A stretch of DNA of 64,000 nt from Candidatus Saccharimonadia bacterium. GTDB taxonomy: Bacteria > Patescibacteriota > SICC01. The stretch is from positions 741,136 to 805,135 of the forward strand of contig JANWJF010000001.1 in NCBI GenBank assembly GCA_025449535.1. The letters run 5' to 3'. Of this stretch, positions 16,740 through 25,996 are shown piece after piece. Positions within the stretch are counted from its first letter, which is position 1, and each line of letters opens with the position of its first letter. Both the position numbers and the translations under genes were made by a program. The notes under the pieces were generated by a model, which ran no database searches, was not told where the DNA came from, and saw nothing but the letters and a program-made list of their open reading frames with translations.

Positions 16740-16828
16740 GAATTATCCGCGGTACGCACGACACTAGGACGACTCATATGGCCTGACTCCGCAAGCCGTT
16801 ATGGCCTTTTATTGCATTTTCGACGGCA

Positions 16829-17602
16829 GTGCTACTATCATGCTTGGTTATGGAAGAAATAGACGTACGATTCTCACGTCCCGAACGCTGGTCCAAAGAA
16901 AGCGAGCCTCACGCGTTCGAGCGGTTCGCGCAGACGGTCTCGGGCATCCGGGCGATGCTCGAGGGGGAGTCGTATGCGGAAGCCCAAGTCCGTTCCGCGG
17001 CGCTGTTGGTTGATACCGACGAACTCTGGGAGAAGGGCTCGCTCGGCCGTCGAGACTACGAGGTCCGGGTCGGGGTAGGTGAGATCTACCGCGTCATCAG
17101 CGGCCTGAAGCTAGGCCGGGGCGGACAGCTGGAGGAGCTTACGGAAGCGATGCGCAGCGTCACCGAGCCGTTGGCTGAGGAGCGGGGTGGGCGGTCGTTC
17201 TGGTGGACCGTCGTCAAGAACCCCGACGATTCGGCACGCGAGGTCGAAGGAGCCATGGCTGCCGTGGATGCGCGTAATGCGGTCACGACATTCTGGCCGT
17301 CGGATGGTAAGTCGGAACAGTTGCAACAGTTCCTGGACGGCCGGAACCTGATCCGCCACGTCGAGCTGGTCCGGGAGCTTTCCGGGACGCATCCGGTATC
17401 CGAAGTCACGCAGCTGTTCCTGCTCCGCCAGCTGAACGAACTGCGGCTGACCGTAGCGGACGACGCGTTGGACCTCGGCATGCACCCGGACGCGTACGAG
17501 ATCCTGATCAAGGTCGACCTGGACGACCTGCACGGCAACCGTCAGTCCTGGTTCATGAAGCTGCTCGACCGGATGCACGAACAGAGTGAGAAGCCGGACT
17601 GA
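16829..17602 (+). CDS. hypothetical protein (first gene of the island inserted between rpsG and fusA)
   Basis: 257 aa; GTG at 16829 or ATG at 16850; TTGCAT/TACTAT promoter-like hexamers just upstream; no recognised domain. Confidence 0.5.
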   Translation: MLLSCLVMEEIDVRFSRPERWSKESEPHAFERFAQTVSGIRAMLEGESYAEAQVRSAALLVDTDELWEKGSLGRRDYEVRVGVGEIYRVISGLKLGRGGQLEELTEAMRSVTEPLAEERGGRSFWWTVVKNPDDSAREVEGAMAAVDARNAVTTFWPSDGKSEQLQQFLDGRNLIRHVELVRELSGTHPVSEVTQLFLLRQLNELRLTVADDALDLGMHPDAYEILIKVDLDDLHGNRQSWFMKLLDRMHEQSEKPD

Positions 17603-17603
17603 A

Positions 17604-18113
17604 TCAGTCCTGGAGACCCAGGCGTCGTTCGTATTGCTCCACGCGAAGACGGTATGCGTCCGTCTCGTCTGCGAGCGCGTCCGGATCGCCAGCGCCGTGT
17701 TCGACTCGAATCCGTCCGACATCGTGCAGAATCACCTTTCGTGACAGTAGCCCATTCGGCTCGAGTACGTCCAGCAGGCATAACCCGACGCCACGCTGGA
17801 TGCCCCCGAAGTATTCGAGGCCTTCCCGGAATCCGGTTGTCGGCCCGCTCGGTCCGGCCCGCAGGACCGTACCGTCCGGCAGGTTGATCGGTTGCCGACC
17901 GGAGTTGTTGAAACGGACCCCGCTACGCTCCAGGCGCAGCGTGACGTTCGGCTTGTAACCAGGTCCGTGGTGGATATCCATCACGACCAGACTCAGTTCG
18001 CCAGCCGACTCGAGGTCAGCGCTCAGTGCCTCTAGCACGATTCGGTCCCCAGGTTGGACGTTCGCCCACTTGAGGAGACGTTCCGTCGGCTCGTGTTCGG
18101 CTCGGTCGGGCAT
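17604..18113 (-). CDS. hypothetical protein (169 aa), convergent with the previous gene
   Basis: Fills the gap between flanking + genes exactly; beta-rich, possibly a beta-barrel domain; no confident family assignment. Confidence 0.45.
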   Translation of the reverse strand: MPDRAEHEPTERLLKWANVQPGDRIVLEALSADLESAGELSLVVMDIHHGPGYKPNVTLRLERSGVRFNNSGRQPINLPDGTVLRAGPSGPTTGFREGLEYFGGIQRGVGLCLLDVLEPNGLLSRKVILHDVGRIRVEHGAGDPDALADETDAYRLRVEQYERRLGLQD

Positions 18114-18137
18114 AGCGAGTCATCATAGCAAGCCGGC

Positions 18138-18872
18138 TTGCCATTAGGTATCATCAACCCAATGGCCGAACTCGACCCAACCCAGACCCAGCAAGCGCAA
18201 CCCCTCACCGATTCGCCGGCGGTCGCCGCGTTCGTGAACAAGGTATTCGGCTGGATGACGCTCGGGTTGCTCCTGACGGCCGGCGTGGCGGCGCTGTTCG
18301 CGTCCACCGGCCGGGCGGAAGGTTTGGCCGATAACCCGGCTCTGCTGATCGGCATCGTCATCGCGGAGCTGGCCCTGGTGGCCGGGCTCAGCTTCGGCAT
18401 CAACAAGATCTCCGCGCCGATGGCGATCGGCGCCTTCGCGCTGTACTCCGGCCTGAACGGCGCGGTGCTCAGCCTGATCTTCCTGATCTACACGGGCGCC
18501 TCGATCGCAGGGACGTTCTTCGTGGCCGCGGCGATGTTCGCGGCGATGGCCGTCTACGGGTACGCGACCAAGCGCGACCTCACCAAGCTGGGACCGCTCC
18601 TGTTCATGGCGCTGATCGGCGTGCTTGTGGCGATGGTGGTGAACGTGTTCCTGCTCAAGAGCCCCGGCTTCGACCTGGCGATCTCGATCATCGGCGTGCT
18701 GGTCTTCATCGGCCTGACCGCCTATGACGCGCAGAAGATCAAACGGATGGGAGCGGCCGGTATGGAAGGAGAGCAGGCCACCAAAGGCGCGATCCTCGGT
18801 GCGCTGGCGCTGTACCTCGACCTGATCAACCTGTTCCTGTTCCTGCTCCGGATCTTCGGCCAGCGGCGTTGA
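18138..18872 (+). CDS. Bax inhibitor-1/YccA (TMBIM) family membrane protein
   Basis: 7 hydrophobic helices; family-typical charged C-terminus ending RIFGQRR. Confidence 0.75.
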   Translation: MPLGIINPMAELDPTQTQQAQPLTDSPAVAAFVNKVFGWMTLGLLLTAGVAALFASTGRAEGLADNPALLIGIVIAELALVAGLSFGINKISAPMAIGAFALYSGLNGAVLSLIFLIYTGASIAGTFFVAAAMFAAMAVYGYATKRDLTKLGPLLFMALIGVLVAMVVNVFLLKSPGFDLAISIIGVLVFIGLTAYDAQKIKRMGAAGMEGEQATKGAILGALALYLDLINLFLFLLRIFGQRR

Positions 18873-18926
18873 CCGCCCGCACGGGCAGGGGTAGGCTTTG
18901 GACGAAACGCACCGCTACCGGTGCGT
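18869..18926 (+). promoter_or_regulatory. putative promoter TTGACC-N17-TAGGCT plus 8-bp perfect hairpin ACGCACCG-ctac-CGGTGCGT in the leader of the next gene
   Basis: Read directly; hexamers overlap the stop of the BI-1 gene. Confidence 0.35.
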
Positions 18927-18946
18927 TCATACGTTAAGGAGGTTGC

Positions 18947-24507: not shown

Positions 24508-24515
24508 GAGCTTAT

Positions 24516-24566
24516 TAGATCAGATTACCTGATCTAATTGACAGATCAGTGTTTCTGATCTAAAAT
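24516..24566 (+). promoter_or_regulatory. consensus sigma70 promoter TTGACA(24538-43)-N17-TAAAAT(24561-66) with two 7-5-7 palindromes TAGATCAG-n5-CTGATCTA (24516-36) and AGATCAG-n5-CTGATCT (24543-61)
   Basis: Read directly; the second palindrome occupies the spacer; GATC inside each half-site; low-GC context. Confidence 0.6.
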
Positions 24567-24593
24567 TGTCTCGTAATTAACTTTTGAGGTTGT

Positions 24594-25676
24594 ATGAAGC
24601 TCACAGCAGTTCCTGTTAATCAAAAAGGTAAGAAATTCTACGTTACACAAATCCCAGCTACAAAGCTGATTGATCAACGTATTTTCCGAGTTGCAGCCTG
24701 GGATCCGAAAGAAAAGAATCCCAAGAAGCAAGGCTACCAGCGAGTCGAAGTTTCAACGCGGGCTCGTAAGATCGGCAAGTATATGACGGAATCCGACCAG
24801 CCCCATGAAAGCGTGCTTCCGGGAGCCATCCTTATTAACTCGCGTCGCCCAATCAAAGTTCTTTCGGAAGGCTCCGGTAACGTCGAAATTGAAATCCCAG
24901 AGTATCCAGCCTTCATCGTCGACGGCCAACACCGCGTAGCGGGAGCGCGGCATGCGATAGAGGAGCTTAACGACGAAGAACTAGAAAGCTACCAGTTCCC
25001 AGTAGTGCTGACGGACTTTGATCAGCCTAAAGAAACGTTACATTTTAAAACTGTTAACGAAGAAGCCAAGAAAGTATCTACCGAGTTGAGCCATCGGCTT
25101 CTCAGGGATCTCAACTTGGGCGGGACTGACATTTCTACAGAGAAAGATCGATGGACTATGAGAGCCCTTGGAGCAATCGATGCTCTGAATGCCGATTCTG
25201 AATCTGTGTGGTACAAGCGCATTGCTATTCCAGGAGAGAAGAAAACACCTGCTCATATTTCTAAGCAGCAATCGTTTGAATCGTCCCTTAAGCCTTTGTA
25301 TGGCAAGAATGCCCGTTTTTCTGACGAGCATACAAAACTCGATGAAGCCACAGGGATCATGAATAATTTCTGGGGCGCGTTGTCAGAAATATTCCCTGGG
25401 GCATTCCTTGAGCCCAAGGATTATCTCATCCAACGGACTCCGGGACTTTTTTCGCTTCATGCTTTGCTAGCACGAATCCTTCAGTACCAGCCCAACCCTT
25501 CCCGGCAGGATCTTAAAAAGATTCTTAAAGCTATGGCTGAAGGCATGGACATGACCGAAGATTTCTGGCGAGCTGGGAAAGATGCTGATGGAGCGGCGGT
25601 ATACGGAAGCATGAAGGGCTTCAACATGCTTTACGAGCAAATGTGGTCCAATATCCCGTCTGAGTTATTGCGATAA
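24594..25676 (+). CDS. DGQHR-domain protein (DndB-like, ParB/Srx-type fold)
   Basis: Signature FIVDGQHRVAG; 360 aa; ~47% GC against a ~65% background; RBS GAGG. Confidence 0.7.
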   Translation: MKLTAVPVNQKGKKFYVTQIPATKLIDQRIFRVAAWDPKEKNPKKQGYQRVEVSTRARKIGKYMTESDQPHESVLPGAILINSRRPIKVLSEGSGNVEIEIPEYPAFIVDGQHRVAGARHAIEELNDEELESYQFPVVLTDFDQPKETLHFKTVNEEAKKVSTELSHRLLRDLNLGGTDISTEKDRWTMRALGAIDALNADSESVWYKRIAIPGEKKTPAHISKQQSFESSLKPLYGKNARFSDEHTKLDEATGIMNNFWGALSEIFPGAFLEPKDYLIQRTPGLFSLHALLARILQYQPNPSRQDLKKILKAMAEGMDMTEDFWRAGKDADGAAVYGSMKGFNMLYEQMWSNIPSELLR

Positions 25677-25707
25677 ATTGACTAAGCTGAGGAGTAAATA
25701 AGTCCTT

Positions 25708-25950
25708 ATGAGCAAGAACTATCACGTATCAGGTAACCGATCTGATGGTTACAAGGTAAAAGCGGAAGGCTCAGCCAAGTCGAGTTCTACACATGACACT
25801 CAAGGAGAAGCTGAGCAAGCTGCTAAGCAGTATGCAGCTGCTGCGGGCGGAGGCGAAGTGAGAATTCACCGCCCTGACGGCAGTATTCGCGACAGTGATA
25901 CTGTGCCACCCGCGCAAGATCCTTACCCGCCAAAAGATACTAGGCACTAA
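25708..25950 (+). CDS. DUF2188-family small protein (80 aa)
   Basis: Pattern MSKNYHV...DGYKVKAEG...TQGEAEQAA...EVRIHRPDGSIRD...DPYPPKD matches the DUF2188 consensus as I remember it; low GC. Confidence 0.55.
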   Translation: MSKNYHVSGNRSDGYKVKAEGSAKSSSTHDTQGEAEQAAKQYAAAAGGGEVRIHRPDGSIRDSDTVPPAQDPYPPKDTRH

Positions 25951-25996
25951 TCCTATGCTTCTCGTGAATACTTTCTTGGGGTAAACTCTCTTTTGT

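Follow-up and report, generated by a model that had tools for sequence, protein, structure and literature searches.

The str operon (rpsL-rpsG-fusA-tufA), which in its canonical form is transcribed from a promoter upstream of rpsL, is a textbook case of conserved gene order and its genes are used as phylogenetic markers. Defence islands and core defence hotspots are known, e.g. from the pan-genomes of Pseudomonas aeruginosa and Escherichia coli. Hotspots that lie between core genes and are free of mobile genetic elements (MGEs) form another known class, over-represented in transformable bacteria (Oliveira, Touchon, Cury & Rocha 2017, PMC5635113); Saccharibacteria are naturally competent (PMC10633639). 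Here we analyse a 64,000-nucleotide stretch of a Candidatus Saccharimonadia genome (the window, denoted W; the compared loci are named L001 to L174), in which the str operon is interrupted between rpsG (end 16739) and fusA (start 25997). The original prediction, made from the DNA letters, had placed 13–14 genes in this insert. Both the open reading frame (ORF) listing and the gene calls bear out the split and the insert; the interval measures 9.26 kb and the number of called genes is 15.

As in the canonical str operon, gene order and orientation are kept and rpsL and rpsG are still contiguous (8-nt overlap), but fusA lies 1–9 kb away with a −10-like box of its own and no Shine-Dalgarno (SD) sequence, and tuf is removed by 0.6–4.8 kb of variable DNA. 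The locus resembles the MGE-free hotspots (PMC5635113) in being an interval between conserved core genes with rapid turnover, no recognisable mobile element and a DNA-uptake gene, comEA. It differs from them in its position inside the rpsL-rpsG-fusA-tuf operon of a reduced genome of ~0.8 Mb, in its gains at one end, beside a promoter, and in the absence of a tract boundary from the flank identity of W and L083 (two genomes). Like defence hotspots, it has different defence-type genes in the same slot (DGQHR/DUF2188, a UG13b reverse transcriptase, a HEC-01A ATPase and a MORC-like ATPase); unlike them, it has one or two such genes per genome, from candidate families, and the remaining genes are non-defence (BI-1, phosphatase, membrane miniproteins). 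Classical tRNA/integrase islands are similar in that a multi-gene insert of partly deviant GC content sits in a conserved neighbourhood, whereas here integrase, tRNA and att repeats are lacking, the parts differ in age and composition and the split is clade-wide. The phenomenon, a hotspot flanked by core genes, is known in kind; its place and lineage are unusual, and no description of an rpsG-fusA hotspot came up in literature searches.

Gene calls and precomputed Pfam assignments were those of JGI 3300035167 (Ga0373474_0000001, 812,893 bp), where locus L001 is base-for-base identical with the window; they agree with the ORF listing. The left border of the interval, rpsG (16269–16739, plus strand; S7, 156 aa; PF00177), has 87% identity to S7 of L083, and the right border, fusA (25997–28099, plus strand), encodes elongation factor G (EF-G, 700 aa) according to the ORF listing and gene calls. 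As a background for gap length, ~150 listed loci with both rpsG and fusA were taken from GTDB species representatives and metagenomes [EF-G against GTDB, none of the matches listed exceeding 70% identity; S7 against metagenomes, none exceeding 60%; used for gap lengths only]. The rpsG-fusA gap is < 300 bp in all but about ten of these loci, seven of which belong to the window and its clade or are rearranged; it is 55 bp in L003 and 18 bp in L014. Longer gaps outside the clade of the window are seen in L004 (561 bp), L005 (864 bp), L008 (363 bp), L015 (2.1 kb) and L017 (2.2 kb); ORF translations, inspected by eye, give a GH13-like gene in L015 and a possible transporter in L017. L092 and L125 are rearranged loci, in which rpsG is followed by housekeeping genes or tuf.

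Close relatives of the window were found by EF-G protein search, ranking, exact-protein look-ups and contig contexts; among named organisms, the best EF-G matches come from Saccharibacteria and other Patescibacteria. Every distinct relative with an EF-G identity of at least 78% is split, with gaps of 1.0–5.8 kb. L083 (EF-G 93%, gap 4.0 kb) encodes proteins of 265 and 283 aa, a NUDIX protein and a reverse transcriptase; L084 (84%, 3.0 kb) a 118-aa protein, BI-1, four small minus-strand transmembrane (TM) ORFs and a 207-aa protein; L085 (84%, 5.8 kb) five hypotheticals, a NUDIX protein and an AAA_15/21 ATPase; L171 (82%, 2.5 kb) a MORC-like GHKL ATPase and a 161-aa protein; L087/L088 (81%, 4.2 kb) four hypotheticals and a histidine phosphatase (His_Phos) abutting fusA; L170 (79%, 1.0 kb) a CBM60 protein and a 67-aa protein. 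The outgroup L089 (EF-G 76–77%, S7 only 47%) is unsplit, with a gap of 44 bp. Since all close relatives are split and the next relative, L089, is not, the break dates to the base of one clade, and the arrangement is ancient and lineage-wide. The window interval is the largest version among the split genomes examined and makes up ~1.1% of its contig.

The content of the interval is a mosaic. All-against-all BLASTP and BLASTN of the seven intervals (~42 genes) find four shared families only, each in a pair of genomes, and all other genes are genome-specific. BI-1 is shared by W and L084 (72–74% identity; S7 of the same pair 72%), NUDIX by L083 and L085 (73–75%; S7 80%), His_Phos by W and L087 (40–45%; S7 67%) and the gene denoted i2 by W and L083 (31%, local; S7 87%). 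Such values agree with genes that descended vertically at this locus and were then differentially lost. Even the closest pair, W and L083 (EF-G 93%), has one distant homolog in common, and BLASTN detects no DNA similarity among the cargoes next to fusA. The original prediction had taken identical content and uniform composition in close relatives as the mark of an ancient lineage-specific arrangement. The same split does occur in every relative; the content is almost entirely different and the composition is not uniform.

Base composition divides the interval into layers. The GC content at third codon positions (GC3) is 0.86–0.94 in core genes, 0.89 in BI-1, 0.94 in His_Phos and 0.67–0.84 in most other interval genes, and falls to 0.49 in the DGQHR gene and 0.42 in the DUF2188 gene (host ~0.9; overall GC 0.48 and 0.52). 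GC drops from 0.62 to 0.32 at 24477–24537, within ~60 nt after the His_Phos stop, and recovers in the first ~60 nt of fusA. The gene adjacent to fusA is of low GC in four relatives as well, although the families are unrelated and the GC3 of the hosts is 0.78–0.93: the reverse transcriptase of L083 (0.35), the ATPase of L085 (0.38), the 207-aa gene of L084 (0.50), and the GHKL (MORC-like) ATPase and 161-aa gene of L171 (0.48 and 0.41). The left neighbour of this cargo varies (NUDIX, His_Phos, a mini-TM ORF or rpsG), so that the common denominator is the fusA-proximal end. The insertion point can be placed further by genes shared between genomes, with NUDIX preceding different cargo in L083 and L085, and His_Phos abutting fusA in L087/L088. 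A GC profile of the insert had been proposed as a check of the single accessory island; it marks the DGQHR and DUF2188 genes as foreign and finds BI-1 and His_Phos host-like, at odds with one foreign island.

The DGQHR and DUF2188 genes with their control region are best read as a recently acquired foreign cassette of 1.47 kb (24508–25981). Its left edge is an 86-nt spacer (24508–24593, plus strand) with a promoter, TTGACA (24538–24543)-17-TAAAAT (24561–24566), that matches 11 of the 12 consensus positions, and two identical 7-N5-7 palindromes, AGATCAG-N5-CTGATCT, at 24517–24535 and 24543–24561. The first palindrome ends just before the −35 box and the second runs from the −35 box to the −10 box, overlapping both; the motif has two matches in the 64-kb window, with 0 expected by chance. 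The operators are conserved: a 56%-identical DGQHR homolog (L172) has retained the core GATCTAATTGACAGATC and the outer GATC boxes in its upstream region, and in a 37%-identical homolog TTGACA is followed by a TGATCTCAAATGAGATCA palindrome.

The DGQHR-domain (DndB/ParB-like) protein (24594–25676, plus strand; 360 aa, motif residues 110–114) matches Pfam DndB (PF14072, E = 5e-17) and TIGR03187 (108.4 bits, cut-off 58.85), but is below the equivalog cut-offs of DndB (TIGR04172, 57.7 vs. 450) and DpdB (NF041060, 70.9 vs. 300); in PADLOC it matches DpdB (2e-19) and DndB weakly. D110, Q112 and R114 of the motif are invariant in 50 homologs, G111 and H113 nearly so. The AlphaFold2 (AF2) model (pLDDT 93.7) has as best, weak matches the ParB-like proteins Noc and PadC. 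The closest homologs (58 and 56% identity) are on short metagenomic contigs; in L172 the homolog opens the gene series, followed by a DUF2779 protein and next to a methyltransferase-Mrr fusion, and in L173/174 type I hsdM-hsdS-hsdR follow it directly; the homologs thus stand at the head of restriction-modification or nuclease operons. Phage and plasmid collections and IMG/VR contain relatives at ≤ 30% identity only, and sequence searches of the PDB with the DGQHR and DUF2188 proteins gave no matches. The founding DGQHR protein, DndB, binds two palindromes (TACG-N10-CGTA) in its promoter and thereby represses its operon (PMC4507180). The window protein resembles DndB in its DGQHR domain, its place as first gene of the operon and the two palindromic motifs in its own promoter. 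It differs in the sequence of the operator, to which its binding is putative, and in its neighbours, which are His_Phos and the partner DUF2188 in place of dndCDE or dpdA. Because the promoter palindromes are conserved and DndB binds two palindromes in its own promoter, we regard the DGQHR protein as a putative autoregulatory DNA-binding protein.

The second gene of the cassette encodes the 80-aa DUF2188 protein (25708–25950, plus strand; PF09954, E = 5e-19, 68.7 bits vs. a cut-off of 22), a full-length match to the PADLOC candidate defence family PDC-S16 (E = 3.6e-20); DUF2188 has been predicted in the literature to act in anti-phage defence. Among the relatives PADLOC identifies the L083 reverse transcriptase as RT_UG13b (1e-96), the L085 ATPase as HEC-01A (1e-135) and NUDIX as PDC-S07 (2e-10), and gives a weak MzaB match; most interval genes have no PADLOC match. 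Of the seven family genomes examined, at least three have a foreign defence-type cassette directly upstream of fusA.

All seven split genomes keep a conserved stretch of 25 nt ahead of the fusA ATG, in which TAAACT or TATACT is followed by exactly 9 nt and then the ATG; in the window the −10-like hexamer TAAACT, found by alignment of the split genomes, is at 25982–25987 (plus strand). None of the seven has a purine-rich SD before fusA, and in the unsplit outgroup AAAGAAAG stands in place of the −10-like box. rpsL shows the same geometry (TAnACT or TACAAT, 9 nt, ATG) in W, L083, L084, L085 and L171; the window copy (TATACT, 15782–15787, plus strand) is likewise without SD, and several interval genes carry a −10-like hexamer 7–11 nt from the start. 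We infer that fusA is an independent transcription unit that is leaderless or nearly so. With a promoter of its own, DNA upstream of the ~25-nt block would not cut off EF-G and insertions would be tolerated. There is no terminator-like site between the DUF2188 gene and fusA, so read-through from the cassette promoter into fusA is also possible.

Hallmarks of mobility are absent, in keeping with the original description of an island that is no classical mobile element and has no integrase, transposase or tRNA at its borders; the notion of a single island gives way to an old break with mosaic layers. Scans of the island proteins against Pfam, NCBIfam, PADLOC and PHROGs found no integrase, transposase, relaxase, recombinase or phage gene, and the rpsG-fusA intervals of the relatives contain no recombinase. 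A tRNA or transfer-messenger RNA (tmRNA) target is missing [nearest window tRNAs at 3456 and 61954, none within 13 kb], there are no flanking or terminal repeats around the window interval, and the cargoes of different genomes have no shared motif, att-like site or inverted repeat. In L085 a 9-nt direct repeat, TATCTTTCG, occurs at both edges of the low-GC HEC-01A segment (8261–8269 and 9991–9999), and the right-hand one of the two copies falls inside the conserved fusA promoter block. The DUF2188-fusA junction recurs unchanged within 12.4 kb of identical sequence on a contig from a second sample, and the DGQHR protein is found on four contigs and the i11 protein on six, with NCBI, JGI and Logan among the sources. 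Contigs of the clade often end at the locus [L002 starts at 25681, 5 nt past the DGQHR stop; P0003 ends 199 nt before fusA; L086 ends inside the HEC-01A ATPase gene]; these breaks hint at strain-level variation and fit it without proving it.

Our preferred reading, to which we assign a probability of about 0.7, is that the region is an old break that has turned into a lineage-wide hotspot of gene turnover and defence, tolerated through fusA's own promoter. A single break of the rpsG-fusA junction would have occurred in the ancestor of a family-level clade of ultra-small, uncultured Patescibacteria with high-GC genomes of ~0.8 Mb, and the junction would since have served as a chromosomal turnover hotspot bounded by two core genes. 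The oldest layer would be residents passed on by vertical descent, of which sister lineages have lost different ones (BI-1, the histidine phosphatase, probably the mini-TM cluster and i2); a second layer would comprise orphans that are confined to the lineage and whose codon adaptation is intermediate (i1, i11, i12 and the duplicated pilin-like pair); and the third would be the 1.47-kb cassette, inserted recently between His_Phos and the fusA promoter. Candidate defence cassettes would arrive repeatedly beside an autonomous fusA promoter, plausibly by DNA uptake and recombination and not by a self-mobile element, and the DGQHR protein may, like DndB, control its neighbour, with DUF2188 as the effector of a candidate anti-phage module.

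Several points weigh against this reading. The conserved hexamer is the sole support for a leaderless-type fusA promoter, and its distance of 9 nt to the ATG exceeds the usual 6–8 nt to a start site. The relatives examined number only seven. No target-site duplication was found except for the 9-mer of L085, which has a chance expectation of ~0.06 and nothing comparable in the other four genomes. Sliding identity between W and L083 reveals no recombination tracts in fusA or rpsG, and the 5′ end of fusA is 92–99% identical without a dip. The low GC3 of the first ~10 fusA codons was considered as a recombination scar and rejected, because all relatives have the same low GC3. The DUF2188 partner is absent from both DGQHR homolog contexts retrieved (L172 and L173/174), the defence labels (PDC-S16, HEC-01, UG13b and the weak MzaB) all denote candidate, unvalidated families, and the intermediate GC3 of the orphans may reflect low expression and not age.

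A stronger form of the hotspot reading appears doubtful to us: the few dozen bases immediately 5′ of the leaderless-type fusA promoter would be a dedicated landing pad for promoter-bearing defence cassettes, swapped by natural transformation without a recombinase, and would constitute the main locus of defence-gene exchange in the clade. If this were true, the cassettes would be stably kept by an essential, highly expressed gene, and their read-through transcription would be coupled to EF-G supply. Delivery by a site-specific system to the fusA promoter region, for instance capture of promoter-bearing cassettes by an integron-like or trans-acting recombinase whose gene lies at another site of the genome, on a phage or on a plasmid, is unlikely. 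It would account for the finding that in five genomes unrelated low-GC cargo ends ~20–60 nt from the conserved fusA block whatever its left neighbour, and for the repeat TATCTTTCG at both junctions in L085; yet no interval encodes a recombinase, the cargoes have no motif, att-like site or inverted repeat in common, and the L085 9-mer, at ~0.06 by chance, lacks a counterpart in the other four genomes. The position could just as well be an effect of selection, being perhaps the sole spot where genes and promoters are spared.

We consider it rather improbable that the interval is instead a stable, ancient, lineage-specific extension of the str operon with genes (BI-1, NUDIX, the histidine phosphatase and small membrane proteins) tied functionally to translation or stress control, in which apparent turnover is mostly rapid sequence divergence. 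The clade-wide split, the vertical and fully ameliorated look of BI-1, NUDIX and His_Phos, and the succession of BI-1 and four small minus-strand TM ORFs in both W and L084 would agree with this, but the length of the interval varies between 1.0 and 9.3 kb and its gene number between 2 and 15, its families differ outright (reverse transcriptase, ABC-type ATPase, GHKL ATPase, CBM60, DGQHR), W and L083 have a single distant homolog in common at 93% EF-G identity, and a cargo GC3 of 0.35–0.50 in hosts of 0.8–0.9 is inexplicable by divergence in place. That the whole 9.2 kb is one integrative mobile element, possibly decayed, or a prophage remnant is highly improbable: its size, its place between core genes, its many hypotheticals and its one compositionally foreign end would suit such an element, but integrase, transposase, relaxase, phage genes, tRNA and terminal repeats are all wanting, and ~84% of the interval is near host GC and includes genes syntenic in relatives. 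We give just as little credence to a chimeric contig that joins foreign low-GC DNA to the str operon. The second-sample contig L002 does start 5 nt past the DGQHR stop and related contigs break here too, but the DUF2188-fusA junction is the same over 12.4 kb in the independent sample, the DGQHR and i11 proteins recur on four and six contigs, and the relatives are all split at the same place.

On the hotspot reading a whole clade tolerates 1–9 kb of changing DNA inside its str operon, apparently through fusA's own promoter. The interval offers a syntenically anchored locus for the study of gene gain and loss in Patescibacteria, whose tiny genomes have few recognisable mobile elements or defence systems, and is a lead to anti-phage candidates of this group (DGQHR with DUF2188, the UG13b reverse transcriptase, HEC-01 and the MORC-like ATPase). 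In practical terms, assemblies of these organisms are prone to break at rpsG-fusA.

The 15 genes of the window interval encode, in order, proteins of 250, 169, 236, 83, 61, 36, 77, 31, 190, 198, 353, 179, 262, 360 and 80 aa. Pfam matched the domains assigned in the original prediction (BI-1, His_Phos, DGQHR and DUF2188); the four mini-TM proteins noted there are five in the gene calls, and of its two pilin-like paralogs the paralogy stands while the pilin N_methyl model does not match. The orphan i1 (16850–17602, plus strand, alternative start 16829; 250 aa, GC3 0.79) has no match in Pfam, NCBIfam, PADLOC or PHROG. On the opposite strand, i2 (17604–18113; 169 aa, GC3 0.70) has its distant homolog at the same locus in L083, a 283-aa gene (31% over 156 aa, E = 2.5e-15). 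The BI-1/YccA-family membrane protein (18162–18872, plus strand, ORF 18138–18872; 236 aa) matches PF01027 (Bax1-I) over its full length (E = 2e-57, 194.6 bits, profile positions 2–207 of 207) and shares 72–74% identity with its positional counterpart in L084. It is followed by the mini-TM protein i4 (18947–19198, plus strand; 83 aa), recognized by a hydrophobic span in its translation, and by four single-pass mini-TM ORFs on the minus strand identified from gene calls and translations: i5 (19296–19481), i6 (19486–19596), i7 (19677–19910) and i8 (19916–20011). The cluster of four small minus-strand TM ORFs that follows BI-1 in L084 is comparable but has no BLAST-level similarity to that of the window; the likeness of i8 to a 45-aa ORF and of i7 to a 51-aa ORF is by eye only.

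The pair i9 (20307–20975; 190 aa) and i10 (21116–21808; 198 aa), both on the minus strand, are true paralogs (31% over 107 aa, E = 2e-5) within an 832-bp tandem duplication, the two units of which share 128 nt at 77% DNA identity. i9 has a class-III-signal-like N-terminus. The N-termini, RPG-FIEVL and QSG-FTEIG, have Glu at +3 and not at +5 as in type IV pilins, PF07963 is unmatched at E ≤ 0.01, and the proteins are ‘pilin-like’ only. Homologous structured 5′ leaders precede them (20880–20975 and 21713–21808), 85% identical over 61 nt where the proteins are 31% identical, with folds of minimum free energy z-scores −4.2 and −4.8. Each leader of ~95 nt forms a long GC-rich hairpin and a 9-bp hairpin, followed by the SD; the sequence of the inner stem differs between the copies and its pairing is kept. 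An Rfam scan of the interval, these leaders included, found no known RNA.

The 353-aa protein i11 (21943–23004, plus strand) belongs to a tiny lineage-restricted family, with only five other members (68, 66, 46, 31 and 30% identity) in 1.84 billion representatives and 5.8 billion clusters. Its AF2 model (pLDDT 81) has a beta domain and long helices, and gave no informative fold match in PDB or BFVD, only coiled-coil noise. The orphan i12 (23051–23590, plus strand; 179 aa, GC3 0.67) is preceded by TTGACT-17-TACATT. The histidine phosphatase (branch 1, His_Phos_1; 23623–24507, plus strand; PF00300, E = 1e-21, 77.7 bits) has 43–45% local and 40% global identity to the L087 gene, which lies 84 nt from fusA. 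The catalytic RHG motif (LVRHGESEAN) is encoded only with the start at 23623 or 23665, whereas the database call (262 aa, TTG 23719) is without it and the L087 homolog aligns from residue 14; one of the two upstream ATG codons, 23623 or 23665, is the more likely start.

The gene order of the window is recG, comEA, tRNA-Leu, tig, clpP, MFS, rpoB, rpoC, rpsL, rpsG, the interval, fusA, a spacer, tuf and the S10/spc/alpha genes. rpsL (15797–16276, plus strand; PF00164) encodes an S12 of 159 aa with a C-terminal extension of ~22 aa rich in Gly, Ala, Asp and Lys (16180–16276), present too in L083, L084 and L171. The 156-aa form of S7 is the database call; a 162-aa start variant has no exact-protein match. 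The second variable spacer (28100–29577) separates fusA from tuf (29578–30759 in ORF listing and gene calls) and carries, on the minus strand, j1 (28110–28871/28928; 253/272 aa, GC3 0.57), which has no family match and by eye consists of two internal repeats of ~110 aa each, and two weakly paralogous single-pass mini-TM ORFs of 46 and 48 aa (29066–29206 and 29210–29356). Across the clade this spacer holds other genes in every relative, among them a 1393-aa protein, DUF5663, SHOCT, PCC and YbjQ.

The S10 operon is interrupted too, between rplB and rpsS (33862–34792), by a 71-aa ORF (plus strand) and a 139-aa ORF (minus strand), neither with a Pfam match; two relatives (the P0003 contig and L084) have other genes after rplB. 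The spacer (60776–61953) between the 16S rRNA gene (59307–60775) and tRNA-Ile is 1.18 kb long, with a 281-aa ORF (61131–61976) that has no Pfam match, and the low GC at 59–63 kb is that of the rRNA operon. Upstream of the str genes, a 460-aa ORF without Pfam domain lies between trigger factor and clpP (4874–6256), and RpoC ends in an acidic tail. The ComEA-type DNA receptor (SLBB and HHH_3; 2591–3322) adjoins recG and fits a DNA-uptake route of gene acquisition.

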